A DNA stretch of 63,064 nucleotides, counting the filler, from Asterionella formosa (Eukaryota): assembly GCA_002256025.1 (NCBI GenBank). It is 13 parts of 13 records of this genome, joined end to end, with 100 filler letters (N's around TTAATTAATTAA, not from the genome) between each part and the next. Parts side by side here need not be neighbours in the genome. Positions count along the whole stretch, not along the records: positions 19,461 to 24,230 come from NKIB01013377.1; 12 more parts are not named here. One strand, written 5' to 3'. Every line of letters starts with the position of its first letter. The stretch's first letter is position 1. Shown here one piece after another: positions 567-28,094 of the stretch. The position numbers and the translations under genes were made by a program. Below the pieces are notes generated by a model. It did no database searches and had not been told where the DNA came from. It saw only the letters and a list, made by a program, of their open reading frames with translations.

Positions 567-3500
567 ATGTCCGAAATTGATGTGGCACTCCAACGGCTTC
601 TGTCAGGAGACTTCAATATTGACGTGCTTGACCAGCTGGTCACTGCTGCCTATGATCCTGTTTCGCCTCATCGAGCTGCAGCTAATAAAGCCTTGATGCA
701 GCTGCAGGAAACCCCGGACTTGTGGACCAAGGCTGATTCCATCATTGAAAACTCAAATGTGCCCCAGTGTCGATTCTTTGGACTTCAGATCCTTGATGAC
801 GCCATCAAGTCAAGGTATGTAGTGTTCTCTATGCATGAAGTGCGTTGGTACATTATCTCTCCTTTCACTTGTATGATTCGTAAACTCACGTATTTGCTTT
901 CAGGTGGAGAGTCATCCCATCGGACCAACGTGATGGAATCAAGAACTTTATTGTAGGCAAAGTTATTTGCATGAGCTCGGACGAAGCAACAATGCGACGG
1001 GAAAGGGTATTTATCTCCAAGCTGAACCTTACGCTGATTGAGATCCTAAAGCATGAGTGGCCGCACAATTGGCCGTCGTTTATCAGTGATTTGGTCGGGT
1101 CATCTAAGACGTCGGAAGTACTCTGTGAAAACAATATGATGATTTTGAAGCTCCTTTCGGAAGAAGTTTTTGATTTTTCGAAGGATCAGATGGTCACGGA
1201 GAAAGTCAAGTCGATGAAGGAGTCGCTAAATACTGAATTCCAGTCAATTTATCAGCTTTGCGAATTCATTTTGGCACATTCTCAGCGACCATCACTGTTG
1301 CAGGTCACCTTGGAGACTCTACAGAGATTTTTGACTTGGATTCCGCTGGACTATATATTCCGGACACAGCTGATCGATGCACTTCTCAATAAATTCTTTC
1401 CTGAGCCTGTGTTTCGAAACAATGCCTTGGATTGTTTGACGGAAATTGGAAGCTTGCAAGAAGCGAAGTACGACACTGTTTTTCCACAGCTCTTTGTGAC
1501 GTTCCTTTCAAGATTGTCAGCCGTCTTTTCCCCTGAGACGAACCTTAATCATGCATACGAGATTGGAACCGAAGACGAACGTGTTTTTATTCAGCGTTTG
1601 GCGCTTTTTTTGTCGGGATTCTTCAAGGCTCATTTAAAACTCTTGGAAGCTCCTCAATACCAGCAGTCACTGCTGACTGGTATGCTTTATCTGGTACGTG
1701 TATCCGAGGTGAAGGAAACGGAAATATTTCGTATTTGCCTCGAAACATGGCACATGCTATCAGAAGATCTCTACAAATCGGAACACTCCTTTGGTGAAGC
1801 ACCAACAGTTTTGAGACTAAACGGGGATTCCGGATCGTCTCGAAAATTCATGTATTCTCCGGTTTTAACCGGAGTCAGACAAGTAATGATCGCCGCTATG
1901 GCTAAGCCAGAGGAAGTGTTGATCGTGGAAGATGAGAACGGAGATATTGTACGGGAAACAACTAAGGATACTGATGTAATTGCTCAGTACAAAACCATGC
2001 GTGACACACTTGTATACTTGACACATTTGAACTGTGATGACACTGAAAATATCATGTTAGCTAAGTTGACGGAGCAAGTTGATGGGAGCAATTGGTCGTG
2101 GAACAACCTAAACACACTGTGTTGGGCGATTGGTAGCATCTCGGGTGCCATGTCGGAGGACGATGAAAAGAGATTTCTCGTGACCGTCATTAAGGATTTG
2201 CTAGGACTTTGTGAACAAAAGCGAGGAAAAGATAACAAGGCCGTGATTGCGTCGAATATCATGTACGTGGTAGGCCAATATCCTAGATTTCTGAAAGCTC
2301 ACTGGAAGTTCCTCAAGACGGTTGTAAACAAGCTGTTTGAGTTTATGCACGAGGTTCATCCTGGTGTTCAAGACATGGCTTGTGATACCTTTCTCAAGAT
2401 TTCGATGAAATGCAAGCGGAAGTTTGTAACTTTGCAAGCGGATGAGCCCGCCCCTTTCATTTGCGAACTTGCAGAATCAATGCATACCATCATTAGTGAC
2501 CTGGAAGCTCATCAAATCCAAGCCTTTTATGAGGCTGTTGGGTGCATGCTCAGTGACAAAGGACCAGCTGTTATGATCGATCGACAAGCACTACTTGCTA
2601 AGCTGATGGAAGGCCCCAACATTACTTGGAGAATGATCATGAGTAAAGCGAACAACAACGTCGAGACATTGGTTGATTCTAATACCATCAAGGAGATTGT
2701 GAAAATTCTTAAGATCAACAACCGAGTATGTAGTTCTGTGGGATCTCTTTTTGTTCATCAGTTTGAGGGCTTCTTTCTTGATATGCTTAATGTTTACAAG
2801 GTGTATTCAGAACGCATATCTGCTGCGATTGCTCAACAAGGAGCCATTGCCACCCAAATGAGTCTTGTCCGAACAATGCGTAGCGCAAAAAAGGAAGTCC
2901 TTCGTTTGCTTATCACGTTTATCGACAAGAGCGGACCTCCAGAATCACCTCCACAGGCTGTTGCACAGGGTTTTATTCCTCCCGTCCTGGACCCGATTCT
3001 CGGAGATTATCAGCGGAACATCGCGGGAGCGCGAGACCCAGAGGTGCTCACTGTCTTTGCTACGGTGGTTGAGAAGCTTAAGAGTCACGTTGTAAATGAT
3101 GTACCAAGAATAATGGATGCTGTTTTCGAATGCACACTTCAGATGATAACCAAAAATTTCGAAGACTACCCGGAACACCGTATAAGGTTCTTCGAGTTCT
3201 TGAAGGCCATTAATTCTTATTGTTTCCCTGCCCTGTTCAATATTCCACCTGCACATCAAAAGCTTGTCGTGGATTCCGTTGTTTGGGCAATGAAGCACAC
3301 GGAACGAAACATTTCAGATACGGGGCTCGATATTCTGCATGATCTTCTTGTGAATGTCGGCAAGACTCCCAACGTCGCACAAGGTTTTTATCAACAATTT
3401 CTCCTTTCTTTAATTCAAGATGTTTTCTCGGTCATGACTGATCGACTTCACAAATCGGGTTTTCGTATGCACTCAACGCTTCTTCGAATGATGTTTCATC

Positions 3501-3871
3501 TTGTGCAGACAAACCAGGTAACGGTTCCTCTGTTCGATCCAGCTACTGCCCCTCCCGGCCAAACGAATCCAGTGTTCCTGAGAAATCACATTTCCAACCT
3601 TCTAATTTCAAGTTTTCCTAATTTGACAACATCGCAGGTTCTCAAGTTTGTGGAAGGAATGTTTGACGTGAAGATGGACTTGGCAAACTTCAAACAGCAT
3701 TTGAGGGACTTTTTGATTCAGCTCAAGGAATTCAGCTCCGAAGACAACGCTGGGCTATACAGCGAGGAAGCAGAGAAAGAAGCTCAGAAGCAACAAGAGG
3801 CATTGCGAAACGAAAGGAGTATGGTGCCTGGAATGTTAAAGCCTTCCGAGATTATCGACGATGACTTGTAG
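567..3871 (+). CDS. XPO1: Exportin-1 (CRM1), 2 exons (567-814, 904-3871)
   Basis: Intron GTATGT..TTTCAG at 815-903 joins DDAIKSR to [17 protein letters not shown]. Hallmarks include [30 protein letters not shown] and [16 protein letters not shown] (the leptomycin-B-reactive Cys is retained). Confidence 0.97.
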
Positions 3872-4287
3872 AGGGGAATGGGAACTTAGGTGACATGTAG
3901 GGTTTAACACAATATTTGAGTGTTATTTTACAGCTTGTGGACCAATGACTCTTTTTTCTATGCAGATTGAATTAGTTATTTAAAGTCTATAATGACAACT
4001 TTGTTTTTTCTAATAGAAACGTTTTTTCTGAATGTACTAGTAACACAACAACTCATAGTTGTTGCTTACTGTGACGTTTCTGGGACATGGATTGCATCTC
4101 AACTGGCTGCACTATGCATCAAACAAGTTAATTTATGCTGATTATTGCACAAGAACGTTGGTCATACTATAGGGCTGTAGCTGTGCCTGTCAGGAACAGT
4201 TTGTGTGGAATGGAAAGTTGTTGAACAGAATCTTGCACAGCAGGCAGGAGCATGCTAATCAAGAACATAACCATTGTTTTCTCTGCA

Positions 4288-4314
4288 CCATCCATCCATC
4301 CATCCATCCATCCA
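4288..4314. repeat. (CCAT)n microsatellite
   Basis: About 6.5 perfect CCAT units. Confidence 0.9.
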
Positions 4315-4508
4315 CCCTACTTTTATCTTTGAAAATATCACGGATTTAGACCAAATAACTAGGGTGCACAGCAAGCGAGGAGCATCACATACACCTATCA
4401 CACTCACATTGACATGATGAAGCTTGCCAAGAAATATACAGGGCCATGGCCACAGTGAGAATGTTTCCGAATACAACAACAGACATAGAATGGATTTAGT
4501 TCAATGAT

Positions 4509-4731
4509 AAATTGAAATTAAATCTTACAGTACATTAAAGCTATTCAATAATCGCACGTGTGCCCACATTTTGAATGGAAACTAATACCGTTTTTTTCGT
4601 CTGTATGGTACAACAGGACCTGTCATTTCATCAGCCGCACCCCCCTGGAACCCTAGGGACTACATGAAAAAGACAGATGCTGAAGAATGCAGGAATCGAA
4701 CCTGCCACCACAGAACACTAAGCCATTGCCC
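4509..4731 (-). mobile_element. tRNA-derived SINE, copy 1, with 18-bp TSD
   Basis: Minus strand reads GGGCAATGGCTTAGTG..GGTTCGATTCCTGC (A/B-box like). Homologous to 16503-16714 and 60133-60356. TGGATTTAGTTCAATGAT is duplicated at 4491-4508 and 4732-4749. Confidence 0.85.
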
Positions 4732-4765
4732 TGGATTTAGTTCAATGATTTAATTTTTTTCATTT

Positions 4766-4865
4766 NNNNNNNNNNNNNNNNNNNNNNNNNNNNNNNNNNN
4801 NNNNNNNNNTTAATTAATTAANNNNNNNNNNNNNNNNNNNNNNNNNNNNNNNNNNNNNNNNNNNN
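4766..4865. other. Artificial contig spacer N-TTAATTAATTAA-N (first of 12; others start at 9631, 14496, 19361, 24231, 29094, 33955, 38810, 43665, 48519, 53370, 58220)
   Basis: Identical 100-nt spacer with stop codons in all six frames, separating segments of 4745-4770 bp. Confidence 0.98.
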
Positions 4866-5024
4866 TCAACCCTAAGTGAAAGGTGTACCCCGGTAGGAGT
4901 ACCAGGTATTCACCTGCCCCGCCCTACCGGTAGTAGAGTGTTCTCAAATCATAGTAGCTAACAAAGCCCCACCCAACCTAACCCAACCCTCAATCATCAT
5001 CATCATCATCTCCCTGTCACTGAA

Positions 5025-6275
5025 ATGCTAAAAGGCAAGAGAAGCAAGTTGTCTGCGAAGCGATGGCAAGCCTTTCTTGTGAGCTTCGTCGTCAGCGTCA
5101 CATTCCTGGTGTATCTTATCGTCGTCGCCACCAGGTCACGCATTAAATCGATAGGTCACGTCGCAACGACTTCACAGCAACACAATGATAGTGTCGGTAG
5201 ATTTACTCAACAAGAGCATTATATTTTGACTGCTTCATACTACCTCATAGAGCTTGAGGTCGCTGCGCCATTGCCAGACCAGGGCATTGATTACACGATG
5301 AATGCCATTTTCTGTCCCCTCGATTGGCACCTACAAAAGTCTAGTCCTTCCACTGTGCCCATGTTTAGAGATTTGATCGAAAAGTCCATTCATTGCCAGT
5401 CCAATAAAATTAAGTTGGATCTACAATCCATCGTCACCAAGGCGCGACGTTTTGACATGACCAACACCTTGGGGACTGCTGCTCCTACAACGCTACCGCT
5501 ATCTGGTGTCGTCTTTCATGAAACTCGTTGTGGTAGCACCCTTGTCGCCAATCTATTGGCGGGGAGCAGTGACACTCACCGTGTGTACAGTGAATCGGGA
5601 CCACCCCTAGCGGCTCTGCAATTATGTGAAGGAACTCAACATTGCAACAGCGTCGCACAAGATGCCGTACTACGAGATGTCATATACTTGATGAGTCGAT
5701 CTCATAATCCGAAAGAGCAACATGTGTTTTTTAAGTTTCAATCTGTCGGGGTCCGATCCATTCATGTATTTACACGAGTATTCCCAACCACACCGTGGAT
5801 CTTTGTGTACCGAGACACAATTGAAATTCTCATGTCACACTTGAAATCCAAAGACCAAGAAAAAGCAGTTTGTTTGCGATCTCGATCTCATCCACATGCG
5901 TTACTGCGTCAAGTAGTGGGACATCGTGATGTGGATTCATTGTCCGCAGTCGAATTTTGTGCTGCTCATTTAGCTTCGTTATGTGAGGCTGCCATCCAGG
6001 AGGCATCCGGTATGTTTATACCCTATTCCAGTTTACCAGATCGTATATGGGAGCTGGTACTGCCGAACCATTTCGGAATTAAAAACATTGATATAGATAG
6101 AATGAAAGTGGTGGCAAGTGTTTATAGTAAGGGACGAGGGGAAAAGGCCAATCAAGAATGGCAGGCCGACTCGCAATGGAAACAAGACAAGGCGTGGGAA
6201 GAAATACGGAATGCGGCTGAAATGTTTGTCAAGCGAAAATTTGACAAAATGGAAGAGTTGAGTCATGCAAAGTAA
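5025..6275 (+). CDS. Type II membrane sulfotransferase-like protein
   Basis: N-terminal hydrophobic anchor, VVFHETRCGSTL (5'-PSB-like loop) and FVYRD..EILMS (3'-PB-like). A possible in-frame intron lies at 5197-5250. Confidence 0.65.
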   Translation: MLKGKRSKLSAKRWQAFLVSFVVSVTFLVYLIVVATRSRIKSIGHVATTSQQHNDSVGRFTQQEHYILTASYYLIELEVAAPLPDQGIDYTMNAIFCPLDWHLQKSSPSTVPMFRDLIEKSIHCQSNKIKLDLQSIVTKARRFDMTNTLGTAAPTTLPLSGVVFHETRCGSTLVANLLAGSSDTHRVYSESGPPLAALQLCEGTQHCNSVAQDAVLRDVIYLMSRSHNPKEQHVFFKFQSVGVRSIHVFTRVFPTTPWIFVYRDTIEILMSHLKSKDQEKAVCLRSRSHPHALLRQVVGHRDVDSLSAVEFCAAHLASLCEAAIQEASGMFIPYSSLPDRIWELVLPNHFGIKNIDIDRMKVVASVYSKGRGEKANQEWQADSQWKQDKAWEEIRNAAEMFVKRKFDKMEELSHAK

Positions 6276-14595: not shown

Positions 14596-15958
14596 TAGTA
14601 GTCATACTTAATATACCCAAGTCATTCACAGGTGAGAAAGGGCTTGAGCTGGGAATATCATCTGACAATGGACTTGATGATGACATGAATCTACTCTTCT
14701 TTGAGTAATACTCATCCACAATGTTTTCACGTTTTCTGGTTCTCTGAGAAGACAGACTGTCAATCTGATTTGTAATAGATTCCAGTTTTCCATCTAAAAT
14801 ATCAAGCTTGGTTTGGATGTTTGCAAACATTATATGTTCCAATGGGTATCTAGCTTGTTGTTGCAGAAGACCTTTCATCCGATCACGAGTGCATGCAGCA
14901 GATTGACTCAGACCAAACAATGCATTTCCCACAATTGAATTGTTAATCAAATCTTCTGATAAAGCCAGTTTTGCTGCTTCTACTGATGCGTCCTCGACTT
15001 TCAGCTGGCCTCTGCTTCGAATGGAGCAATCAATTGACATATCAGAAGCACGACTGAAACTTCGTTCTTCTGCAACCAATTTTCTAGCTGATGCACGGCC
15101 TGCTGATTCTTTCTTGCCATTCTCAAAGACACAATCCTTTGTTAGCAAGAGAATAGACTTGAACTCATCTCTAGCAAATGGTCCAAACAATTTGAATCCA
15201 ATCCAGCCATGAAAATAATAATCCACAGGCATCCCAACATCATCATTCAATGCCACAGCAGCACCCAAGATTTCCTCATCATCATCATCCTCATCCTCAT
15301 CATTAGCTGGGTCGCTATAGCTGGTTCGACCCTTCAGATATCGAAACATATGGTTTAATACATGGTTGTCATAGTCCTCAACATTGTTCCCGGAAGGCAA
15401 AGTCCCATCAGGGAGTAAAAATTGCGACCCAAATGCTAAGGCCTTCTTCCAATTCAGAAGGGCATGCTGAGCCATCTTCAATAGAGTTCGACCAGTAATT
15501 AAAGTGGACATATTTTTCATTCCAGTGCCTGCAAGAGATCTTGTAGTGAATTGAGAGCCAACAACATATCTGTTTTGATAATCACGGGAATAGCAATCTT
15601 TTAAGACCAAATCAAAGGCAGAAACACGATCTGCATTTCTTTCTGGGAGGTTGGTATTCAGCTCCTCTCTACTCCAAAGGTCTTCGAACTGACCCCTTCC
15701 CCTCAGCAGAGACTCCAAATATCCAATGCTTTCTTTCACGGATGGATCGCCATGATAAAGTAGATATATTTTATTCTGAAGATTTTTGATTGTCATTGTT
15801 GGCCCTCCTGATACCTTGTCCAGAACAGCAACAGCAACAGTTCGTTGCAACTCCTTTTGCCATGCAGAGGGAGAAAGAGAGCTCTTGGCTGGAAGGGGTG
15901 CTGGCACCATGATCGAGGATGCTGATTGTTGGCAATCGACAGATGTTGTTATGTTCAT
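14596..15958 (-). CDS. Harbinger accessory protein, intact copy truncated by contig end
   Basis: Open frame of >450 aa with an acidic tract and a coiled-coil-like C-terminus. Near-identical to 19461-20720. Confidence 0.7.
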
Positions 15959-16342: not shown

Positions 16343-16462
16343 ACTGAAATTGTATAAATTTACGCATAGTTGCGGTCACTATGCTTAAAAATCAACAATT
16401 TAATCTGGGATTAAGATAGCTAAATCTTTAGTTCAGCAAAATTACCGCAATTTGCTGGTACC
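16343..16462 (+). repeat. Short dispersed repeat family C (also ~59745-59925; end only at 50770-50796)
   Basis: Shared TTTAATCyGGGATwAAGATAGCTAAATCyTTAGTT and ACyGCAAyTTGCTGGTAC. Confidence 0.7.
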
Positions 16463-16502
16463 TGGTACCAGGTACCCGGTACCAGTAGCAGTAGCAGTAG
16501 CA

Positions 16503-16714
16503 GGGGTTAGCACACATGTTGCGGTGGTAGGTTCGATTCCTGCATTCTCCAACTGTTTTTTTCATGTAGTCCCTACGGTTCCGGGAGTGCGGCTGACGAA
16601 AAGACAGGTCCCGTTATACCGTACGGACGAATAAAACCGGTACTAATTGTGTCCATTTATTCATTTACTTGGGCACGAGCTCGATTATTGGATAGCTTTA
16701 ACGTACTATAAGAT
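16503..16714 (+). mobile_element. tRNA-derived SINE, copy 2 (5' end eroded, no clear TSD)
   Basis: GGTTAGCAC..GGTTCGATTCCTGC head. Body GACGAAAAGACAGGTCCC..GGACGAATAAAACCGGTACTAATTGTGTCCAT is shared with 60133-60356. Confidence 0.8.
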
Positions 16715-17462
16715 ATGCGTATAAATAAATATCCTTCTATCGTAGACTACTGGTAGTCTACCGTTACTGCCCACTGCCAATGTACATCTTCATACCGTCG
16801 CTCATGTGATGTACCGGCACTTCTAAGTCCAGTACCAGCACAACAACTTCTGCTCGTAGATGTCCCAAGTTCCCAACTTTGAATATGTAAGTGCCCAACA
16901 AGTCCCAGAAGAAGTTTGGATGGTTTCTAACCCTACTTGATTTCATACGTAGGTACTGTGTTACACAATATTGTGGAAGGTACCAGGTACCGGTACTCCT
17001 CACATCAGACATCAAAAGAAGGACAACAGCTACCTGGTACGTGGTCTACCGGTACCTGCATTCTATGTAGGTACCGGTACAACCACTACATACTCATTTA
17101 TGTCGGCATACTGGTATACCGGTACCAGGGTAGTATGAATATTAAAACCCCACGAAGCACACAGTAATGCATATGTATTATGCGGTTCTTACCATCAGGA
17201 ATACCCGGAGAAAATACCAGGTCTACTACCGGTATGTTACCATTGGTGTGCCCTGTTACCTGGTAACGAGAATTTGGCCTTTCCCACAGCCTTCAAGGTG
17301 TGACGATGCAAAAGTGAAACATAAATGTTGCTTCCACCCCACTAAACATACCAGGCACCGTCAGCTTTATCACTCCACTCCACTCTACTTCGCACCCGCC
17401 CTCCGTCGTTCACGCGCTCATAGCAATACTGCAGCAACATGTTGAATTACCATGAATTGACT

Positions 17463-18520: not shown

Positions 18521-19460
18521 AGGCAAAGGCTTTATTCCCAGTCCATTATTTGGTACCTTCCTGACACAATGTCAACATGCAGGTTTGACTACTAGGATTC
18601 CGGCGTACGCACACTCATCGTTCCTGTTCACAGGGACCCATGCAACGATTTCGGATTCTCAACATGAATAAACTGTAGCAGAAAAACCTTACTCATAAAT
18701 GTTGATTAAAAGTAGGAAATACATTTGGTGCCCTGGACTCTGTGCTTTTGATCCTGGCTCTGTAAGAGCTGACTGAGTTGGCGAAAGGACTTTTGATAAA
18801 GTCGACACTCACATGGAAAGTATTGTTCTCGTAGCCTCCATGTGTTGGAGAAATTATTTTATGAGACATACATTCCGGTATTAAAATTACGCTACACATA
18901 TACCAATGCACAAGCAAGTTGAATTAAATGAATCAAAAAAGATACCAGTACCAAGATCAGAATTCAAAAATAAACAGCACTGCAAGTAGAAATAATTACA
19001 ATCAACCGTTGTTCATATATCCAGCCTATTTGGTCCCTGAATTCCATTGTAAGTGCACGCTTCACTATAAATATTTTGATTGGTCAAGTTCAATTACTTA
19101 CCGACAATTGATTGGCCTGGTTTGCACGGTCTTGCAAACCCAAGCTGGCCACACTGGATGCACATGTAACATTTTCTTGGGTGTTGGCCGGTACAATATC
19201 CACAGTAGTAGGTAGCTGATCATCATTAATCATATGCATACCAGTGTGATCAGGCACTTTGCCTGCCGGTACATTGAATGGACAGAGTGCGCTGCTTTTC
19301 CTTTGATGATCATTGCGGCCACAATGATTGCAGACATTTGTTCCTTTCCTTCTTGTTTCCNNNNNNNNNNNNNNNNNNNNNNNNNNNNNNNNNNNNNNNN
19401 NNNNTTAATTAATTAANNNNNNNNNNNNNNNNNNNNNNNNNNNNNNNNNNNNNNNNNNNN

Positions 19461-20720
19461 TACTTTATCATGGCGATCCATCCGTGAAAGGAAGCATTGG
19501 ATATTTGGAGTCTCTGCTGAGGGGAAGGGGTCAGTTCGAAGACCTTTGGAGTAGAGAGGAGCTGAATACCAACATCCCAGAAAGAAATGCAGATCGTGTT
19601 TCTGCCTTTGATTTGGTCTTAAAAGATTGCTATTCCCGTGATTATCAAAACAGATATGTTGTTGGCTCTCAATTCACTACAAGATCTCTTGCAGGCACTG
19701 GAATGAAAAATATGTCCACTTTAATTACTGGTCGAACTCTATTGAAGATGGCTCAGCATGCCCTGCTGAATTGGAAGAAGGCCTTAGCATTTGGGTCGCA
19801 ATTTTTACTCCCTGATGGGACTTTGCCTTCCCGGAACAATGTTGAAGACTATGACCACCATGTATTAAACCATATGTTTCGATATCTGAATGGTCGAACC
19901 AGCTACAGCGACCCAGCTAAGGATGAGGATGAGGATGAGGATGACGATGAGGAGGAAATCTTGGGTGCTGCTGTGGCATTGAATGATGATGTTGGGATGC
20001 CTGTGGATTATTATTTTCATGGCTGGATTGGATTCAAATTGTTTGGACCATTTGCTTGCTAGAGATGAGTTCAAGTCTATTCTCTTGCTAACAAAGGATT
20101 GTGTCTTTGAGAATGGCAAGAAAGAATCAGCAGGCCGTGCATCAGCTAGAAAATTGGTTGCAGAAGAACGAAGTTTCAGTCGTGCTTTTGATATGTCAAT
20201 TGATTGCTCCATTGGAAGCAGAGGCTAGCTGAAAGTCGAGGACGAATCAGCAGAAGCAGCAAAACTGGCTTTATCAGAAGATTTGATTAACAATTCAATT
20301 GTGGGAAATGCATTGTTTGGTCTGAGTCAATCTGCTGCATGCACTTGTGATCGGATGAAAGGTCTTCTGCAACAACAAGCTAGATACCCATTGGAACATA
20401 TAATGTTTGCAAACATCCAAACCAAGCTTGATATTTTAGATGGAAAACTGGAATCTATTACAAATCAGATTGACAGTCTGTCTTCTCAGAGAACCAGAAA
20501 ACGTGAAAACATTGTGGATGAGTATTACTCAAAGAAGAGTAGATTCATGTCATCATCAAGTCCATTGTCAGATGATATTCCCAACTCAAGCCCCTTCTCA
20601 CCTGTGAATGACTTGGGTATATTAAGTATGACTACTAAAAATCAGCAACTAGGTGATAATATCTCGCCTGTTGCAAGGCAAGATCCAATTGGCAATTTGG
20701 ATGACTTCGTCTATGAATGA
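19461..20720 (+). pseudogene. Harbinger accessory ORF, disrupted copy
   Basis: Relative to 14596-15958 it has a 4-bp duplication (TTGC, ~20053-20060) and a CAG>TAG change at 20226. Confidence 0.85.
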
Positions 20721-20829
20721 AAAATGCGTAAGGCCTTCTAACACTTTTGCTTAATTGTCGACTACCCCACTAAATAAATACATATGGAATCCAACATTTA
20801 AAAAAAATTCAATTACATAAATTGTGAAA

Positions 20830-22225
20830 TTAGATTGTAAATTAGACCACCCTGTTCCGTCATGTTGCAATAAGAATGACAAAAGTTTCTGGTTACTACC
20901 GCATATTGATCCATCAGTCGTGTGTATGTTGTTATCTTGTCGTTTCAGTTCGGTGACAGCAGTGTGTCCATTTCTTTGTTTTATAGCTGGCGATAAATAG
21001 AAATGAATCCGTAGAGCACCATTTTTTTACTATTATCCAAAGCTCCTCCATGGACTATATCTCCACGCATGAGAAAGATGAATTTGAATGGTATGGACAA
21101 ATGTAGTGCATGTTTCTCATCTGCACAGTTATCCCATACATTTAAGCAGTTCCCTCCTAAAGACAACAACATTATCATTCCCCAAGGCATAGGTGTTTCC
21201 CTTTTGCATTCTGTTGGTGTATAATCTTGATGTGGTTTCTGAGGTTTTGGGTAGCCATTCTTTCCAGAATTGGTGAACAACAAAGTGGCAGTGTGCGGTT
21301 TAACTCTGTCATTATTGCTGGAGACATCATTGTAACCTGGTAGTAACAAGGACTTTATCATATGCCAAAATGGTTTTACATTTGGCAGATCCAGCTTTGA
21401 ATATTTTGAGCTGTCAGTATAATTCTTGAAAGGAAACACTTGCATGGCTTTTCCTTCCATAGTATTTGCAAGTTCTTTGTATTTTGCAGTTGTTTTGAAT
21501 GTTTGTTTCAACAAACGAACAGGAGGGTGATATATTTTCTTGGAAGTACAAAAAGATTTTGCCACATGTAAAAATGGATTGTCTTTTTCTTCTGTTCCAA
21601 AAAACTCATCTGGAAGGAAAGATAGATTGAGGACAAACACACGTTCTTGTTCAATTCCGTCGATGACATAAAGGAAGTTATCTGTTCTCAGAACTGTTTT
21701 GATTAGCCGTAATGAATCAGTGATGAAACATAGGAAGTCTTCTATCTCTGCTGCATTTGGCGGCATATTGTTGTCTTTCTGATGTAGTCTAAAATCTCAA
21801 GGAAAGTGACTTTCTGATGTAGTCTAAAATCTCGAGGAAAGTGAGTCTTCCATAAAATCATCGCTGGTCCTATATGATTCCGAAATTTCCTTGAAGTTCC
21901 AAATGATGTTTTGTTAAACAAGCCAGACTCTAGGACCACATAGAATTTGTTGTTGAGAACAAAATCCAGGACACTGTCATCTAGCCTCGTCTCCTTGCCT
22001 TTGTCATCATGATCAACGTATCTAACCAGTAAGAGTCGTTCCTTACTTTTCCGTTGTCTCTTGAACAGACATGAAATGCGCCATAGAAACACGTTTTTCC
22101 TGATTGAACAATCTGCAATTCGTACCCCCTTCACAACCATTATCGTTCCATTCCTTGTAGCACTCGGAACATTTGCCATTCCGCCCAGATAACAAATGAT
22201 ATATTGCACTATCGATAGCGTGCAA
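20830..22225 (-). pseudogene. 2OG-Fe(II) dioxygenase-like (PhyH/DSBH-type) cargo gene, frameshifted
   Basis: QKPHQD ... MRGDIVHGG, and after a 1-nt shift in an A7 run (~21022-21028) NGALRIHFYLSP. A 35-bp duplication (21775-21844) splits the two listed ORFs. Confidence 0.65.
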
Positions 22226-22349
22226 ATGTCAAGAGAAACAAGGAAGCAGAAAGGGATAATGGTCTGTCAACAAAGGATTAAACAGTGGGCGAGTGCTGGA
22301 TTGGAAGCGATGCAGCACCAACATACTCAGTAATATACATTAGATTGGT

Positions 22350-22565
22350 AGTGCAAAGCTACAGTTTCATAGTACCAGCGTAGTAATAGGTATAGTTTCT
22401 TAGTACCAGCGTCATGTTCCGACCGGGTATTGAAACAAGAGGAAGAAGGGAATGCTGGTAGGGCAAACCTACAGTCTCACAGTACTAACGTAGCAATAGG
22501 TACAGATTCACAGTAGCCACGTCATGTTCCGACCGGGTATTGAAACAAGGGGATGATAAAAATGC
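22350..22565. repeat. ~110-bp imperfect tandem duplication between the transposase and the cargo gene
   Basis: CGTCATGTTCCGACCGGGTATTGAAACAAG occurs twice, with matching upstream GCAAAsCTACAGT blocks. Confidence 0.85.
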
Positions 22566-22660
22566 GGAAATTTTATTCACAGATGTTGGTGCCCAGTAAT
22601 CTAATTTATTTCATGCTCATACTAATTTTCTTTTAGTTTCTAAATAGATAATTGTATGGT

Positions 22661-24226
22661 TTAGGGATGATCATTTACATTACGATGTGATGGCCAAACA
22701 ATCTTGTTTTGTTTCCATAAAATATCAAAATGTTCAATGAGTTTACTCTTGAAGAACTGTAAACTTAAATGCCGAAGCACTCGAACTGTATCAACATTCT
22801 TTGTTAGCACTTCAATATTGAAGTTGTCATTTGGATCTGGCACTAAATTGCGAGTTGCATCAGGAATTTGTCCATCACCATCATTACCAGGACCCATTCC
22901 AGAGGTATCAATTGTTCGCAAACTGGCTAATCCAAGTACTGCTGGTCTTGCAACTGCATTTAGCCTTTGAATAGCAAAAGGTGCTTCAGCTCCATTTAAT
23001 TGGCCTAATGGTCCTTCCCAGTCACTTAAAAAACCATTTTGCCATTGCAGGTCTAAGCCATCAATATCAAGTAACATGATATGAACTGCACAACATGTTA
23101 GCCAGACTTTGTCAGGTTCTGTTACTCCATGTATTCGGATGCCTGATTTTAAAATCCGCCAGCGTCCCTTGAGTATTCCAAAGGTACATTCCACATCTTT
23201 TCTAAGTGACTCCAGCCATTCAGACCATCTATTTAGATATCCATTGTCAACTATCAAAAAGCATCCACTATACCTTATGGATACAACTGCTCCATTCCGA
23301 TCTTTTTCTTTAAGCTCAAACTCCACATCTTTTAAGGCATCTGCACCATTCTGGATGCCTCGAGCAAAAGTATCAAAGTTGATTAATGTTTTATCATTCC
23401 ATCGACAAGGATGCCCCGTGGTACTAGACAGGATCCTCCGGCAATGATTCACAGTAGCATTATAAGTCCTGGCTGTACAAGGAAGTTTTGATGATATATG
23501 CTGGTCTCGAAGCCGATTGAAGCAGCGCTTTATTGACACATGTGTAGCATCTGTTGACCCAAGACGGCCAGGGAAACCTGCCTGTGTCATTTCAAACATG
23601 TGATGCTCTGCTTCCAATGGGTTTGTTGGAGTTCTAACATATTTTTTGTAAAGGATGGTACTTCCAACTTCAATAAAGGCATGGAAGAATTGCCTGTGGG
23701 TCTCTTGACTGATACCAATATTCTCCTCAATGTCATCAAAAGTCCATCCTCTCCCAAGGTACCTGAATGCTCCTAAAACCATAAGTTCAAGGGGTGATGA
23801 TGCCCTTCCTGTTGCATCAGGTCGAGTCCAGCGAGGAAACCAATTTGAATCTCTAGCATCAACAACAAATTGGAGGAACTGGTTGTGTGGTAGTCGAAAT
23901 CTGCGGCGGAATTTCTTTTGAAATGACAATGATTCAACTGCTGGTCTGGAAATGTATAGTATATACCAGTTTGACATCACAGGAGTTATCATTTGAATTA
24001 GCCCTTTGTCATTGATGTATTCACAGACCTTGTTCTTTCCTCTCACTCTAACTCTTGGGGGTAGAGGCACATTGTTAAGACTTTGTATTTCTGGAGTGGG
24101 CACGAGTAGAGTTCTTCCGAAATCAGACAAAAACTGAAGATACTGGAAGTATTTCTCTGGTTCTACCTCACCATTAGCATCTAGACGTTGTACAATGTTA
24201 TGTGGGCGATGGTCACATGAATCCAT
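22661..24226 (-). CDS. PIF/Harbinger-type DDE transposase (Plant_tran/DDE_Tnp_4-like)
   Basis: FRRRFRLP, LRYLGRGW-like AFRYLGRGWTFDD, GSTDATH, WNDKT, IVDNGY and RKDVECTFGILKGRWRIL. The segment after DNGYL looks shortened, possibly an in-frame deletion. Confidence 0.88.
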   Translation of the reverse strand: MDSCDHRPHNIVQRLDANGEVEPEKYFQYLQFLSDFGRTLLVPTPEIQSLNNVPLPPRVRVRGKNKVCEYINDKGLIQMITPVMSNWYILYISRPAVESLSFQKKFRRRFRLPHNQFLQFVVDARDSNWFPRWTRPDATGRASSPLELMVLGAFRYLGRGWTFDDIEENIGISQETHRQFFHAFIEVGSTILYKKYVRTPTNPLEAEHHMFEMTQAGFPGRLGSTDATHVSIKRCFNRLRDQHISSKLPCTARTYNATVNHCRRILSSTTGHPCRWNDKTLINFDTFARGIQNGADALKDVEFELKEKDRNGAVVSIRYSGCFLIVDNGYLNRWSEWLESLRKDVECTFGILKGRWRILKSGIRIHGVTEPDKVWLTCCAVHIMLLDIDGLDLQWQNGFLSDWEGPLGQLNGAEAPFAIQRLNAVARPAVLGLASLRTIDTSGMGPGNDGDGQIPDATRNLVPDPNDNFNIEVLTKNVDTVRVLRHLSLQFFKSKLIEHFDILWKQNKIVWPSHRNVNDHP

Positions 24227-24332
24227 GTGTNNNNNNNNNNNNNNNNNNNNNNNNNNNNNNNNNNNNNNNNNNNNTTAATTAATTAANNNNNNNNNNNNNN
24301 NNNNNNNNNNNNNNNNNNNNNNNNNNNNNNTC

Positions 24333-25646
24333 TTGAACAACATTGGCCGCATCCACTATCTTCGCACCGAATATGACGATGCTCTCAAGGTTTACAAAGA
24401 AGCACTTTTCATTCGCAGAAGTACCCTTGGAGAGAACCATATTGACGTCGCAGCCACCATTTATAACACCGGCCAGACCCATCACCAACGTGGAGAGCTT
24501 GATGACGCCATGAAATTGTACAAGGAATTCCTTGTCCTTGCCACAATCCGACTTGGAAGTGAGCACAGAGACATGGCTATCATGTACAAGTGTATTGGTC
24601 AAATCCACCAAGAGCGCAGTGAATTCGACGATGCAAAGACTATGTTCGAAAAAGCTTTGACTACCGGCCGCGCGGCTCTCGGAGAACATCATCCTGAGGT
24701 TGCATCCACCTTGAACAAGATCGGTAATTTGTCATATGAGATGGGTGACTTGGAATCTGCTATGAATTACTACAATGAAGGTCTGAAGGTCGAACGCTCG
24801 GTTCTTGACAAAGATCATCCTCACATTATGGTGACATTGACTAACATTGCTCAAATCCACAAGCAACGTGGAGACTTCAGCACTGCTATTAGAACTTACC
24901 GCGAAGTTCATGCTATGCAGCTACGTGCTTATGGGCCCAACCATATTGATGTTGCGGCTACCTTGAGTAGCTTGGGATTAATGCAATACCAGATTAAAAA
25001 TTACCATTCTTCCTTTGAATTATACCAGGACGCTCTTCGTATCCGCAGGGATCTCCTTGGGGAAGATCACACCGATGTTGCTTCCACCCTGAACTCCATC
25101 GGTCTTGTTCTCTTCAAGCAAGAACTTTTTGAGGTGGCTAAGCAGTGCTTCATGGAGAGTCTCCGAATCAGATGTAAGATCCTTGGACCTAACCACCGCG
25201 ATGTCGCCATTTTGTGGTACAATATTGCCACTATCTTCTTGGAAATTGGTGAAGATGAAGAGGCCGTAAAATATTATCGTGAAACCCTTCGTGTCGAACG
25301 TCAGGCACTTGGACGTGATCACCACGACGTCGTCCTCACGTTACAGCACATGGGTCAAGTCCACCAACAACGGGGAGAGCTCGACGAGGCGCTGTCTTAT
25401 TTCCGTGAAGCTCTTACCATCGAAAGAAAGAAGCGAGGTAACGACGATGTAGCTGTCGCTAAGGTCTTGAACCTAATTGGAAACATTCATTTGCAACGAG
25501 CTGAGGTGGAGGAACTTATGGCTTGTTACTCTGAAGCCAGTAGAATATACAAAAAGAACGATCGTCAAGATGATGCGCTTGTTATTGCTGGGTTCAACTT
25601 CTATGCTTTGTCGAAGTTTCATCCTGAATGCGCTTCACTGGCATAA
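24333..25646 (+). CDS. TPR-repeat protein (kinesin-light-chain-like 42-aa TPRs), 5'-truncated
   Basis: Repeated LGxxHxDVAxTLNxIG units. Confidence 0.9.
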   Translation: MNNIGRIHYLRTEYDDALKVYKEALFIRRSTLGENHIDVAATIYNTGQTHHQRGELDDAMKLYKEFLVLATIRLGSEHRDMAIMYKCIGQIHQERSEFDDAKTMFEKALTTGRAALGEHHPEVASTLNKIGNLSYEMGDLESAMNYYNEGLKVERSVLDKDHPHIMVTLTNIAQIHKQRGDFSTAIRTYREVHAMQLRAYGPNHIDVAATLSSLGLMQYQIKNYHSSFELYQDALRIRRDLLGEDHTDVASTLNSIGLVLFKQELFEVAKQCFMESLRIRCKILGPNHRDVAILWYNIATIFLEIGEDEEAVKYYRETLRVERQALGRDHHDVVLTLQHMGQVHQQRGELDEALSYFREALTIERKKRGNDDVAVAKVLNLIGNIHLQRAEVEELMACYSEASRIYKKNDRQDDALVIAGFNFYALSKFHPECASLA

Positions 25647-25785: not shown

Positions 25786-27042
25786 TCATTCTCCTTCCAG
25801 ATCTCGAACAAGCTCGTCACGATGCATCACTCGCATTCGAGGAGCGAATGCCATTACCAAACCGTCTTCTACCCTTCCTTCGAATAACTTCGAGATACCA
25901 TACTCTGAGTGCTTGCATCGATGATCTGTCACTCGATCTTGGGGATAGTTGTAAGTGCGAATGCGCTCACTCCGATCGCCACCTCCCATTAGACCCTTGC
26001 GTTCTTCACCTCTTTCTTTAATGGCCTCTGCTTGCTGTCTGTCCCTCACCCTAGCTGCGACTAGCTTGAGAGCTTTCTCTCTGTTCCTATGTTGACTTCT
26101 TTCGTCCTGTATGGCTGCAGTAATTCCGGTAGGTATGTGAGTAATCCGAACGGCACTCTCGGTGGTGTTTACACTCTGTCCTCCATTTCCGGATGATCTC
26201 ATAGTTTCAATTCTTAATTCTGAGCTTGGAAGCAGCTCCCCGTGGTTTGTGCTTTCAGGCAAGGATGGCAAAACTGCGACCGAACAGGCGCTTGTCTGTA
26301 ATTTAATATCATTGATGGGGACTCGCTGCACTCGATGCACTCCACTCTCAAATTTGAAGAAACCGTAAGGACCAAAGCCAGCGAGCAAGTTGGTTGAATA
26401 GTCGTCACCGTCATCGTTTATGCCAGATCCATAGGAACCACTGCTAGAAACAGCCAGCGAAGCTTCCTTTAATCCTCCCAATTCAGTCTTTGTTTCGGTC
26501 AGAATTTCTGTCTTGAATCCCAAAGCCCTAGCCGAGTTCGTGTACATTTCCACAATCGCAGCACTGAAAAGAGCTGCTTCGTCGCCTCCAGATCCTGCTC
26601 TAACTTCAATGATTGCATCAGATCCGTAATCTTCTTCGTCCTTAGGTAGGACCGCTTCCAAAATGCGTTTCTCAACTTTCGATCTCACTTCCTCCAGTCT
26701 CTTCATCTCTCCAATGCACTCCTGTTCCAACTCCCGGTCTCCAGTACTTGAAGCCTCAGCTAGCAATTCCTGGAACGATTGCTCTTCCTTGTCTAAAACT
26801 TCAAGCTTATCTCTCAGTCGAGAAACTGGTATCAGCAAACCGAATTCTTTTCCAAGAGAAGATCCCTCGCCCGAGTTCATTAATTCGTTGATTTTGTCAT
26901 GTCGTTCGCAAATTGCATCAACTCGTTTTTTGATGGCGTCGGAAAGTATGTTTCGACGTTGGAAGAATACTCGATCTAGACGCAAGAAACATTGCAATCG
27001 AAGGATGGTGGATGTTGTTGTCTGTCTTGACAGTGATATCAT
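25786..27042 (-). CDS. prfA: Organellar (probably mitochondrial) peptide chain release factor 1
   Basis: IEVRAGSGGDEA, FESGVHRVQRVP, SSGNGGQSVNTTESAVRITHIPTG and RSERIRTYNYPQDRVTDHR. The N-terminus is Arg/Ser/Thr-rich like a presequence. Confidence 0.93.
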   Translation of the reverse strand: MISLSRQTTTSTILRLQCFLRLDRVFFQRRNILSDAIKKRVDAICERHDKINELMNSGEGSSLGKEFGLLIPVSRLRDKLEVLDKEEQSFQELLAEASSTGDRELEQECIGEMKRLEEVRSKVEKRILEAVLPKDEEDYGSDAIIEVRAGSGGDEAALFSAAIVEMYTNSARALGFKTEILTETKTELGGLKEASLAVSSSGSYGSGINDDGDDYSTNLLAGFGPYGFFKFESGVHRVQRVPINDIKLQTSACSVAVLPSLPESTNHGELLPSSELRIETMRSSGNGGQSVNTTESAVRITHIPTGITAAIQDERSQHRNREKALKLVAARVRDRQQAEAIKERGEERKGLMGGGDRSERIRTYNYPQDRVTDHRCKHSEYGISKLFEGRVEDGLVMAFAPRMRVMHRDELVRDLEGE

Positions 27043-28094
27043 TGTTTGGTTTGAGGTCGTGGGATCAACAGATCAGTGCTTCAAAAAATTGTGTACCAGG
27101 TACCTACTCTCCTCTCCCTGCTCTATGTACCGGTATGCATTTTCCTGTGCTGTGGCTCATGATAAATGTGTAAATATCCATTTACCGGTAGTATCAGGTA
27201 CCAGTACCTGGTACCATACTACCGGCATACCGGTACAAGGGTATCAGGTACCGGTACCGGTTGCCTGGTAGTCTACCTGGTACCTGGTATATACATGCGA
27301 CAAACCCGATTTTGTGATCATCAAGGGGCCCGCTGGCTGGTGCGCGGCGGCTCAAGATTTTGTGTGCTGATGGTGTTGATTTTTTTATCCTTTTTTCTTT
27401 TATACTTTTGTCATTTCCAGGTATGTGTATATAGATGCCGGGGCACGTTCATCACATTTCGGCCTTTAGAATCGAGATTTGTATGCTAATCCCCAAAATG
27501 CCCTCCCAATTTTGAGAAAAAGAGAAATTGGGGGGTTCGTTCAGCATACCTTCATTTTGTAACTTCAGTCAAAGGTATAAAATTTCTGGTGAGCATTTCT
27601 TGAGCACCCTCCCTGTAACCACAGGATTCATCCCAGAAAATCCATACATTTGACAAAGTTACATTTTCATCAAAACAAGCTATCACACTGCATATGTCAT
27701 GAATCGAAATTCGGGCTATAGTGGTAGTATAACACTATGCAAATTAGTAAAAAGGCGGTCATCTATAATTTTCTCCTAAATACATTTAGACAATCACAAT
27801 GAAAACTCATAAAAGTTGAACACACCATGACATCATCATGCATTGTCCCCTGATGATGTTTGTACTGGACCAGCACATGGTTCCAACATTGCTTTGATAC
27901 TCCACTTAAGGTAAGTGGAGTATTGGGATCACAGAAAAATATCCTTTCGGCAGAGAAAGCTTGCATTGATTAAAGTCGGACTTTTGTTAGGAATTCACTT
28001 GTCAAGTTGGCAGATGTCAGTTGAAAACTGATTGACTGATTGCTGCCTGCTTGTTCTTGTTGATGCCAGAAACATCCACTAACTCTACACTCCA

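Follow-up and report, generated by a model that had tools for sequence, protein, structure and literature searches.

Can a transposon of the PIF/Harbinger type carry an oxygenase of its own? The question is raised by a 4770 nucleotide (nt) contig of the alga Asterionella formosa (NKIB01013377.1, assembly GCA_002256025.1), in which a broken gene on the minus strand lies between a transposase open reading frame (ORF) and a convergent accessory ORF. An earlier note on this DNA had read the arrangement as a three-gene Harbinger whose third gene encodes an Fe(II)- and 2-oxoglutarate (2OG)-dependent dioxygenase-like protein. The contig occupies positions 19461–24230 of the window, by which we mean the whole 63,064 nt stretch that was analysed. 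The window consists of 13 unplaced contigs of 4751–4770 nt each, chained by 12 linkers of the form N44-TTAATTAATTAA-N44 (for example at 19361–19460 and 24231–24330), and any feature that crosses a linker is an artefact of this concatenation. With a linker on either side, 19461–24230 is the sole contiguous stretch on which the arrangement can be read. We put at roughly 0.55 the probability that we are looking, in this contig, at the decayed remains of one copy of an element that a freshwater alga has many times over, comprising a transposase, an oxygenase-family protein carried as cargo and a convergent protein. That one transposon holds all three genes is a proposition that we also favour, to a modest degree.

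The third gene becomes legible as one protein once its lesions are repaired. Its N-terminal part is an ORF of 155 amino acids (aa) on the minus strand at 21742–22209, with its first ATG at 22179 and with RNA contigs covering it. Its core is a 261-aa ORF on the same strand at 20981–21766, which contains the strand motif LNLSFLPDEFF and, beyond it, PQKPHQDY and RGDIVHGG. The frame is broken by a 35-nt tandem duplication at 21775–21844 (2.0 copies with 97% matches in Tandem Repeats Finder, TRF), and deletion of one unit in a script leaves an open frame of 397 codons from 22209, with the junction that the earlier note had given. Evidence on DNA and RNA from other sequencing runs comes throughout from Logan contigs. 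The sequence occurs in runs from freshwater and lake metagenomes and in that of a single coded organism (X6, organism A); X15 and X16 are polyA RNA-seq runs from two studies, the contigs of which give no strand, ends or levels. Among these, the duplication-free form is present both as DNA and as RNA: an X1 contig has a joint from 21777 to 21813 that skips the 35 nt, and in an X16 contig just one repeat unit separates the N-terminal ORF from the start of the 261-aa ORF (loose end at 21810).

The end of the gene requires a further correction. An A7 run at 21022–21028, on the minus strand, has lost one nucleotide, and the C-terminal 61 codons (20838–21020, minus strand; GALRIHFYLSP ... GWSNL) stand in a shifted frame. 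L001, a JGI metagenome contig of 1258 nt that encodes a third gene 93% identical in amino acid sequence together with the tail of the convergent accessory ORF, has one additional base between window positions 21025 and 21024 and reads in a single frame through to the stop after GWSNL; it has two other frameshifts of its own. A switch of frame at the A7 run is seen in 20 of the 43 family proteins aligned to the window (9 distinct 90% clusters), and X6 and X16 contigs contain one extra letter within 20960–21111. An RNA contig (record 11) from the sample in which the DNA is best represented, probably the source sample of the window, retains A7, and thus the loss belongs to the window copy and is not obviously a sequencing error. 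The codon that follows GWSNL is CAA in the window and TAA in L001, such that the natural stop is lost and reading continues to 20751; the relatives P0009, P0019 and P0040 end at the GWSNL position (alignment A4). Counted from the first ATG, the repaired protein is predicted to be about 437 aa long.

The window copy is dead, since its accessory ORF carries an insertion and a nonsense codon and its third gene the duplication, the frameshift and the lost stop. In these respects the earlier note proved accurate: the gene order is seen in the ORFs and their Pfam matches, the duplication and the one-nucleotide correction are each matched in other copies or relatives, the repaired protein exceeds the 400 aa that had been predicted, and the motifs to which it had drawn attention (HQD..GDIVHGG..R-x-H-x-Y) recur throughout a protein family.

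That family was collected by a phmmer search against 1.84 billion representative proteins, which gave 26 relatives at E ≤ 1e-3, 10 at ≤ 1e-10 and 3 at ≤ 1e-30, drawn from ENA, JGI, Logan and one NCBI record. Intact relatives are 284–455 aa long, with an additional member of 553 aa on the metagenome locus L002, and many others are fragments of 50–140 aa at 60–93% identity, as expected of broken copies. None of the members has a name or a precomputed Pfam domain. A word-index protein search ('Longer'), a method nearly blind to this family, returned 0 relatives; word-index searches with the A1 profile and with region 235–375 of P0019 returned 3 and 4 respectively. Pattern scans of prokaryote genomes (A3 and A5) and of viral contigs found no relatives, and the N-terminal 155 aa of the third gene matched no family protein in BLASTP or phmmer.

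The conserved blocks of alignments A3 and A4 are the N-terminal strand motif LNLSFLPDEFF, PQxPHxDY, PW, RGDxVHGG and NGALRxHxY, so that H-x-D-Y, R-G-D-x-V-H-G-G and R-x-H-x-Y are found family-wide. Counting in A4 the rows that cover each column, the first His is kept in 22 of 23, the Asp in 23 of 23, the distal His in 22 of 23 and the Arg in 23 of 25; the exceptions are degenerate copies or a frameshifted read. These four residues persist across clades that are just 19–30% identical to one another. At the level of sequence, therefore, the H-x-D/E ... H metal triad of the Fe(II)/2OG oxygenases is present, the HQD and VHGG of the window protein being 60 residues apart. The Arg lies 13–15 residues past the distal His on a predicted strand, and from this position alone a role in binding 2OG may be read.

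What fold might these residues sit in? We modelled P0033, the closest intact relative of the window protein (37–42% identity), with AlphaFold2 (37 rows). The mean predicted local distance difference test score (pLDDT) was 51.4 and the predicted template modelling score 0.50, with core residues 150–280 at 64–85 and forming eight strands. With this model as query, Foldseek returned 113 PDB matches (E ≤ 1e-3), of which the 36 listed are without exception non-haem Fe(II)/2OG-type oxygenases, among them PHD2 (the best, at 8.1e-05), AviO1, SptF, FtmOx1, SnoN, AndA, WelO5, OkaE, TlxI and ThoJ. In a VIA-align search of 48,161 representatives the top of the ranking held cupin and double-stranded beta-helix (DSBH) proteins only, with Z up to 9.6; short alignments led to small cupins, and alignments of 150–176 residues to 2OG oxygenases. 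A second VIA-align comparison gave AndA at Z 9.4 (root-mean-square deviation 3.9, 166 residues aligned), OkaE at 8.9 (176), FtmOx1 at 8.8 (178) and AsqJ at 8.6 (174), as well as AlkB at 8.7 (138) and JMJD5 at 8.2 (112), rows within 1 Z unit of each other counting as tied. AndA, AsqJ, FtmOx1, OkaE and EasH are members of PhyH (PF05721). From this relative we conclude with moderate confidence that the family has a DSBH core, and, with the same moderate confidence, that the C-terminal 300 residues would adopt a DSBH fold closest to that of the Fe(II)/2OG oxygenases. Because the Z scores are middling and neighbouring rows are tied, the models support the fold class, and do not support a choice of subfamily or substrate. 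No TET/JBP chain is among the fold-search matches listed, which does not in itself rule that family out. As a lead only, the ESM Atlas pointed to a giant-virus cluster in which 51% of members carry PhyH (scores 0.95 and 0.94).

The identity of the transposase is clearer. The ORF at 22661–24226 on the minus strand is open over 521 aa and matches DDE_Tnp_4 (E 2.1e-11) and Plant_tran (E 7.5e-10), both above the Pfam cut-off, as expected of the DDE transposase of a PIF/Harbinger element. At 23231/23232 an additional 51 letters appear in an RNA contig (X15, record 14), and the X6 DNA contigs break at the same point; the window transposase therefore probably has an in-frame deletion of 17 codons at about codon 331, just after the DNGY motif. 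Separately, an X16 metatranscriptome contig departs from the transposase at 23285 into telomere-like CCCTAA repeats, and may stem from a copy cut short at the end of a chromosome, or else be a chimera.

The accessory ORF, at 19461–20720 on the plus strand and convergent with the third gene, survives in three fragments, with its 5' part cut by the contig edge. Its frame is disrupted near 20052 by an insertion of 4 nt and is closed by a nonsense codon at 20226–20228 (two frames in tblastn); the 4 nt are missing from the X6, X15 and X16 contigs. A second, intact copy is found on the minus strand at 14597–15958, with 454 codons, and runs off the neighbouring contig. That preceding contig (14596–19360) overlaps the present one in reverse orientation, its first 1167 nt matching 19461–20637 at 97.5% identity over 1177 nt (blastn); it is a second copy or an allele of the accessory gene of the element, and not a true neighbour.

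Other copies bear on the linkage of the three genes. In X6, where 97 contigs matched at 90–100% identity, contigs at 95–99% identity between them cover all three genes, at similar depths of 15.6 for the accessory ORF, 12.6–33.7 for the third gene and 10–14 for the transposase. In an X1 contig 20615 is followed directly by 24098, the junction that an internal deletion would leave. (X1 matched in 32,295 contigs, at a summed depth so implausibly high that we have not used it as an estimate of copy number.) In L001 the third gene and the accessory tail recur together, with frameshifts different from those of the window. Both the third gene and the accessory ORF are represented, at 95–100% identity, among the polyA RNA contigs of X15 and X16, which leave the spacer at 22482–22640 uncovered although it is the deepest stretch in DNA, which argues against carry-over of DNA. 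Parts of the transposase are also uncovered in X16, a gap from which we draw no conclusion. What these contigs contain is a repeated element in several diverged and independently broken copies, with unbroken forms in polyA RNA.

A number of our results weigh against the reading of this contig as one transposon with an oxygenase as cargo, and the first of these concern linkage. It is only in the contig 19461–24230 that the transposase and the third gene are seen to be adjacent. No terminal inverted repeat (TIR) or target-site duplication (TSD) is visible, a k-mer search of the flanks finding no inverted termini beyond 10-mers; the contig ends 4 nt before the transposase ATG, which is why termini cannot be seen here. 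The distant homologues on L002–L004 have no transposase match in up to 6.1 kb. A PIF/Harbinger element is expected to encode a Myb/SANT-like second protein, and the intact 454-aa accessory ORF matches no Pfam family at E ≤ 1, no Myb/SANT domain and no PDB sequence. Finally, the spacer between the transposase stop and the start of the third gene contains a 110-nt tandem repeat of about two units, 82–85% alike (22346–22565; TRF period 110, 1.9 copies; D1 family), the depth of which in X6 is 137 and 93 against some 11–25 for the genes, or 6–9 times as much, as might be the case for an element end or a miniature inverted-repeat transposable element (MITE).

These observations suggest another possibility, namely that two unrelated repeats abut. 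The Harbinger would then end within the 22210–22660 spacer, and the oxygenase-like gene and the convergent ORF would belong to some other repeat or to a multi-copy host gene pair, beside or into which the Harbinger was inserted. The depth of the 110-nt repeat is in keeping with this, as are the two small crossing inverted repeats that flank it (22315–22609; 10 nt at 100% and 12 nt at 92% complementarity), since together they resemble a subterminal region or a MITE. Likewise, X16 RNA contigs represent the third gene and its convergent partner well and the transposase body little, the L002–L004 homologue is accompanied by a convergent ORF but by no transposase, and a Myb/SANT domain is missing from the accessory protein. 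However, the three genes have similar depth in X6, and the X1 contig links the accessory side to the 5' side of the transposase. No inverted match exists between the spacer and the other flank, and a tandem array of variable length would alone explain the peak in depth, given that a joint in X1 jumps back 109 nt within the repeat. Nor is the lack of a Myb protein peculiar to this contig, as the PHISTA Harbingers of fungi are likewise composed of three genes, the third of which encodes a protein without Myb (PMC12730594). On balance we consider it fairly unlikely that two repeats abut here, and retain the single element; the 110-nt repeat itself may be an element end, a MITE, a subterminal array, a protein-binding array or a variable array.

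The L002 homologue deserves a closer description, given its part in this argument. It is a distant member (about 30% identity, 553 aa) within a multi-copy block of its own of at least 4–5 kb (640–5509 of that locus), which also contains a convergent 338-aa coiled-coil ORF and two ORFs with no Pfam match. Identity among L002–L004 is 83–93%; L002 and L004 are 83% identical over 4 kb, after which they diverge abruptly, and L004 is frameshifted. Since this type of homologue too is multi-copy with decayed members, the family as a whole behaves like mobile DNA. Homology of its convergent ORF to our accessory ORF was considered and rejected, the only match being a coiled-coil-like one at E 0.064. No tandem arrays were found beside the L002 homologue.

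The second group of adverse results concerns the protein. No Pfam family, PhyH (PF05721) included, reaches the cut-off in the third-gene ORFs of the window, in the 23 members of A2 or in 10 further relatives; the sole hint of PhyH is in one A2 member, the fragment P0020, which scores 15.4 bits (E 0.023) where 22 would be required. TET_JBP (PF12851) gave no match at E ≤ 10 among the same 23, nor any in the other Pfam scans. A search of PDB sequences with the A3 profile returned noise (Nup93/Rab, E 0.29–0.47). As for structure, a first AlphaFold2 model, of P0019 (23 rows), reached a pLDDT of 38 and was discarded, the second is of a relative 37–42% identical rather than of the window protein, and VIA Z scores of 8–9.6 are in the range that the tool itself calls middling. 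For most of the nearest neighbours in fold the substrate is a small molecule or a protein, and with PhyH-like enzymes, prolyl hydroxylases, AlkB and JmjC tied within 1 Z unit, the model does not favour DNA or chromatin as the substrate.

One might therefore ask whether the protein is an oxygenase at all. It could have a cupin/DSBH fold and be non-enzymatic or bind a different ligand, for instance as a dimerisation or binding module. The highest Z in the wide VIA search (9.6, 82–93 residues aligned) belongs to small cupins, including the dimerisation cupins of CENP-C/Mif2, and this accords with the lack of any 2OG-oxygenase Pfam family above cut-off. Yet the matches that extend over 160–180 residues and take in the N-terminal strand are all Fe/2OG oxygenases, as are all 36 Foldseek matches listed, and H-x-D, H and R persist across clades 19–30% identical. 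We regard such a cupin as improbable, and an oxygenase-family protein as the better description.

The last adverse result is the pattern of divergence. Over 299 codons the window and L001 are separated by 23 non-synonymous changes and by only 3 that are synonymous. This reads as neutral decay, and for this reason we infer selection on the gene only from its deep conservation. Neutral divergence, together with the many frameshifted fragments among database copies, is what one might expect had the element family captured a host gene once and carried it as a passenger with no role in transposition. The same divergence would be expected of any dead transposon copy, however, all of which decay neutrally after insertion, and a one-off passenger accounts poorly for the unbroken forms in polyA RNA, or for a homologue of the L002 type that is multi-copy and decayed as well. 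A single capture of this kind seems to us very unlikely, and we continue to prefer a cargo gene of use to the element.

Several of the proposals in the earlier note accordingly stand in part. Its three-gene Harbinger is upheld by adjacency within 4.77 kb, by the recurrence of two of the genes in L001 and by similar depth in X6, and is left short by the absence of visible TIRs and TSDs, by the missing Myb/SANT domain and by L002–L004, which have no transposase. Of the intact copies within TIRs that it had proposed to look for, unbroken forms are present in polyA RNA contigs and the TIRs are not visible. Its expectation of a dioxygenase-like fold fared better, the AlphaFold2 model of P0033 resembling Fe(II)/2OG oxygenases and cupins only.

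Elsewhere in the window, another contig contains two host-like ORFs, at 24333–25646 and 25786–27042, of which, judged by eye from the translations, the first looks like a TPR-repeat protein (437 aa) and the second like a peptide chain release factor (418 aa). Short GGTACC-rich repeats (runs of CTGGTAC and GGTACCNGGTACC) occur at 16455–17140 and 27090–27290, in two contigs, upstream of unrelated ORFs; either a microsatellite spread through the genome or a small family of repeats may account for them.

How might such an element use an oxygenase? If our reading is correct, the third gene would encode a protein of about 437 aa, the C-terminal 300 residues of which would form a DSBH Fe(II)/2OG oxygenase domain nearest in fold to the PhyH-like oxygenases. 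The H-x-D and distal His would bind Fe(II), and the conserved Arg 2OG. The convergent accessory protein would be about 500 aa long and without a Myb domain. Carried as transposon cargo, the oxygenase would have a hydroxylase or demethylase activity of benefit to the element, most plausibly the oxidation, on or close to the element, of a mark on a macromolecule, whether protein or nucleic acid and whether methylation or some other modification. We propose this last step by analogy with the TET/JBP cargo of fungal Harbingers and with PAG3 of red-algal transposons. That the cargo would serve to counter silencing is a tentative suggestion, drawn from the same analogy, which we hold at this low level since, among the nearest folds, enzymes of small molecules and proteins are as common as those of nucleic acids. 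More speculative still, and in our view quite unlikely, is that the family is the stramenopile or freshwater-algal counterpart of PAG3, a self-targeting cassette that hops between transposon superfamilies, its lineage-specific N-terminal domain binding the 110-nt array and its PhyH-like domain oxidising a silencing mark, on DNA or histones, in the chromatin of the element itself. In that case the DNA transposons of algae would have turned repeatedly to non-TET oxygenases as a weapon against silencing.

Few transposons are known to bring with them an enzyme that modifies chromatin or DNA. Known cases are VANC in VANDAL elements, TET/JBP in fungal elements, SET in HarbingerS and the PAG genes of red algae. 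Cases of this kind inform our understanding of how mobile DNA escapes silencing, and the control of transposons in algae is poorly known. In the literature that we searched, no such gene is reported on Harbinger elements of diatoms or other non-red algae, nor are Harbinger elements or other transposons joined with a PhyH-type or 2OG oxygenase in diatoms. Thus, while the concept is already established, the protein family, its carrier and its host group appear to be undescribed. The present contig adds an oxygenase-like family outside Pfam, with conserved catalytic residues, that lies next to a PIF/Harbinger transposase in an alga and is present in polyA RNA. Should linkage and activity both hold, it would represent a second, non-TET type of oxygenase on Harbingers and a candidate for anti-silencing in algae; should linkage fail, it would be a new small 2OG-oxygenase-like gene family in repetitive algal DNA.

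The earlier note had compared the gene with the TET/JBP dioxygenases of KDZ transposons. Closer precedents are described in a survey of fungi, with TET/JBP genes in 11 fungal transposon lineages that include three-gene Harbingers, the PHISTA elements of rust fungi (Kojima 2025, PMC12730594); these, together with the red-algal PAG3, supersede the KDZ comparison. PHISTA, as characterised there, has in common with our contig a Harbinger DDE transposase, a 2OG-type dioxygenase and a third protein without Myb/SANT, and an anti-silencing role is proposed for it likewise. It differs in that its enzyme is TET/JBP, whereas our family has no TET_JBP Pfam match and has PhyH-like, prolyl-hydroxylase, AlkB and JmjC neighbours, and in that its host is a fungus and its copies have defined TIRs and TA target-site duplications, whereas here the host is an alga and the ends are not visible. 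The HarbingerS elements of Phytophthora, as cited in that paper (PMC12730594), are a stramenopile Harbinger lineage that also carries a chromatin modifier, in that case a SET histone methyltransferase and not an oxygenase.

As described in a preprint on the red alga Bostrychia moritziana, PAG3 is an accessory protein without annotated domains that is encoded by Plavaka, Mutator, Zisupton and Fanzor-encoding elements. Tandem repeats lie beside its gene, its N-terminus is weakly ParB-like, and it has a remote 2OG-oxygenase domain (best HHpred match 2OPW_A, E 0.016) (bioRxiv 10.1101/2025.02.11.637652). Going by that description, PAG3 and our third gene have in common the lack of any InterPro or Pfam domain, a remote C-terminal 2OG-oxygenase domain preceded by an N-terminal extension, tandem repeats beside the gene, mostly degenerate copies and mobility between transposon families. 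They differ in that a Pfam scan found no ParB-like match in the N-terminal 155-aa ORF of the third gene, and in that the carrier here is a PIF/Harbinger element on a contig with no PAG2-like methylase/SET gene. The chain 2OPW_A is presumably PHYHD1, a PhyH-type protein. The PhyH-like oxygenases are also the enzymes to which our modelled relative gave its longest structural alignments (166–181 residues, Z 8.2–9.4), with the order H-x-D ... H ... R in common, although sequence identity is 9–16%, Pfam PhyH is not matched above cut-off, and the enzymes concerned act on small molecules in biosynthetic clusters and are not known from transposons. Judged by its published description, PAG3 closely resembles the third gene in these features.

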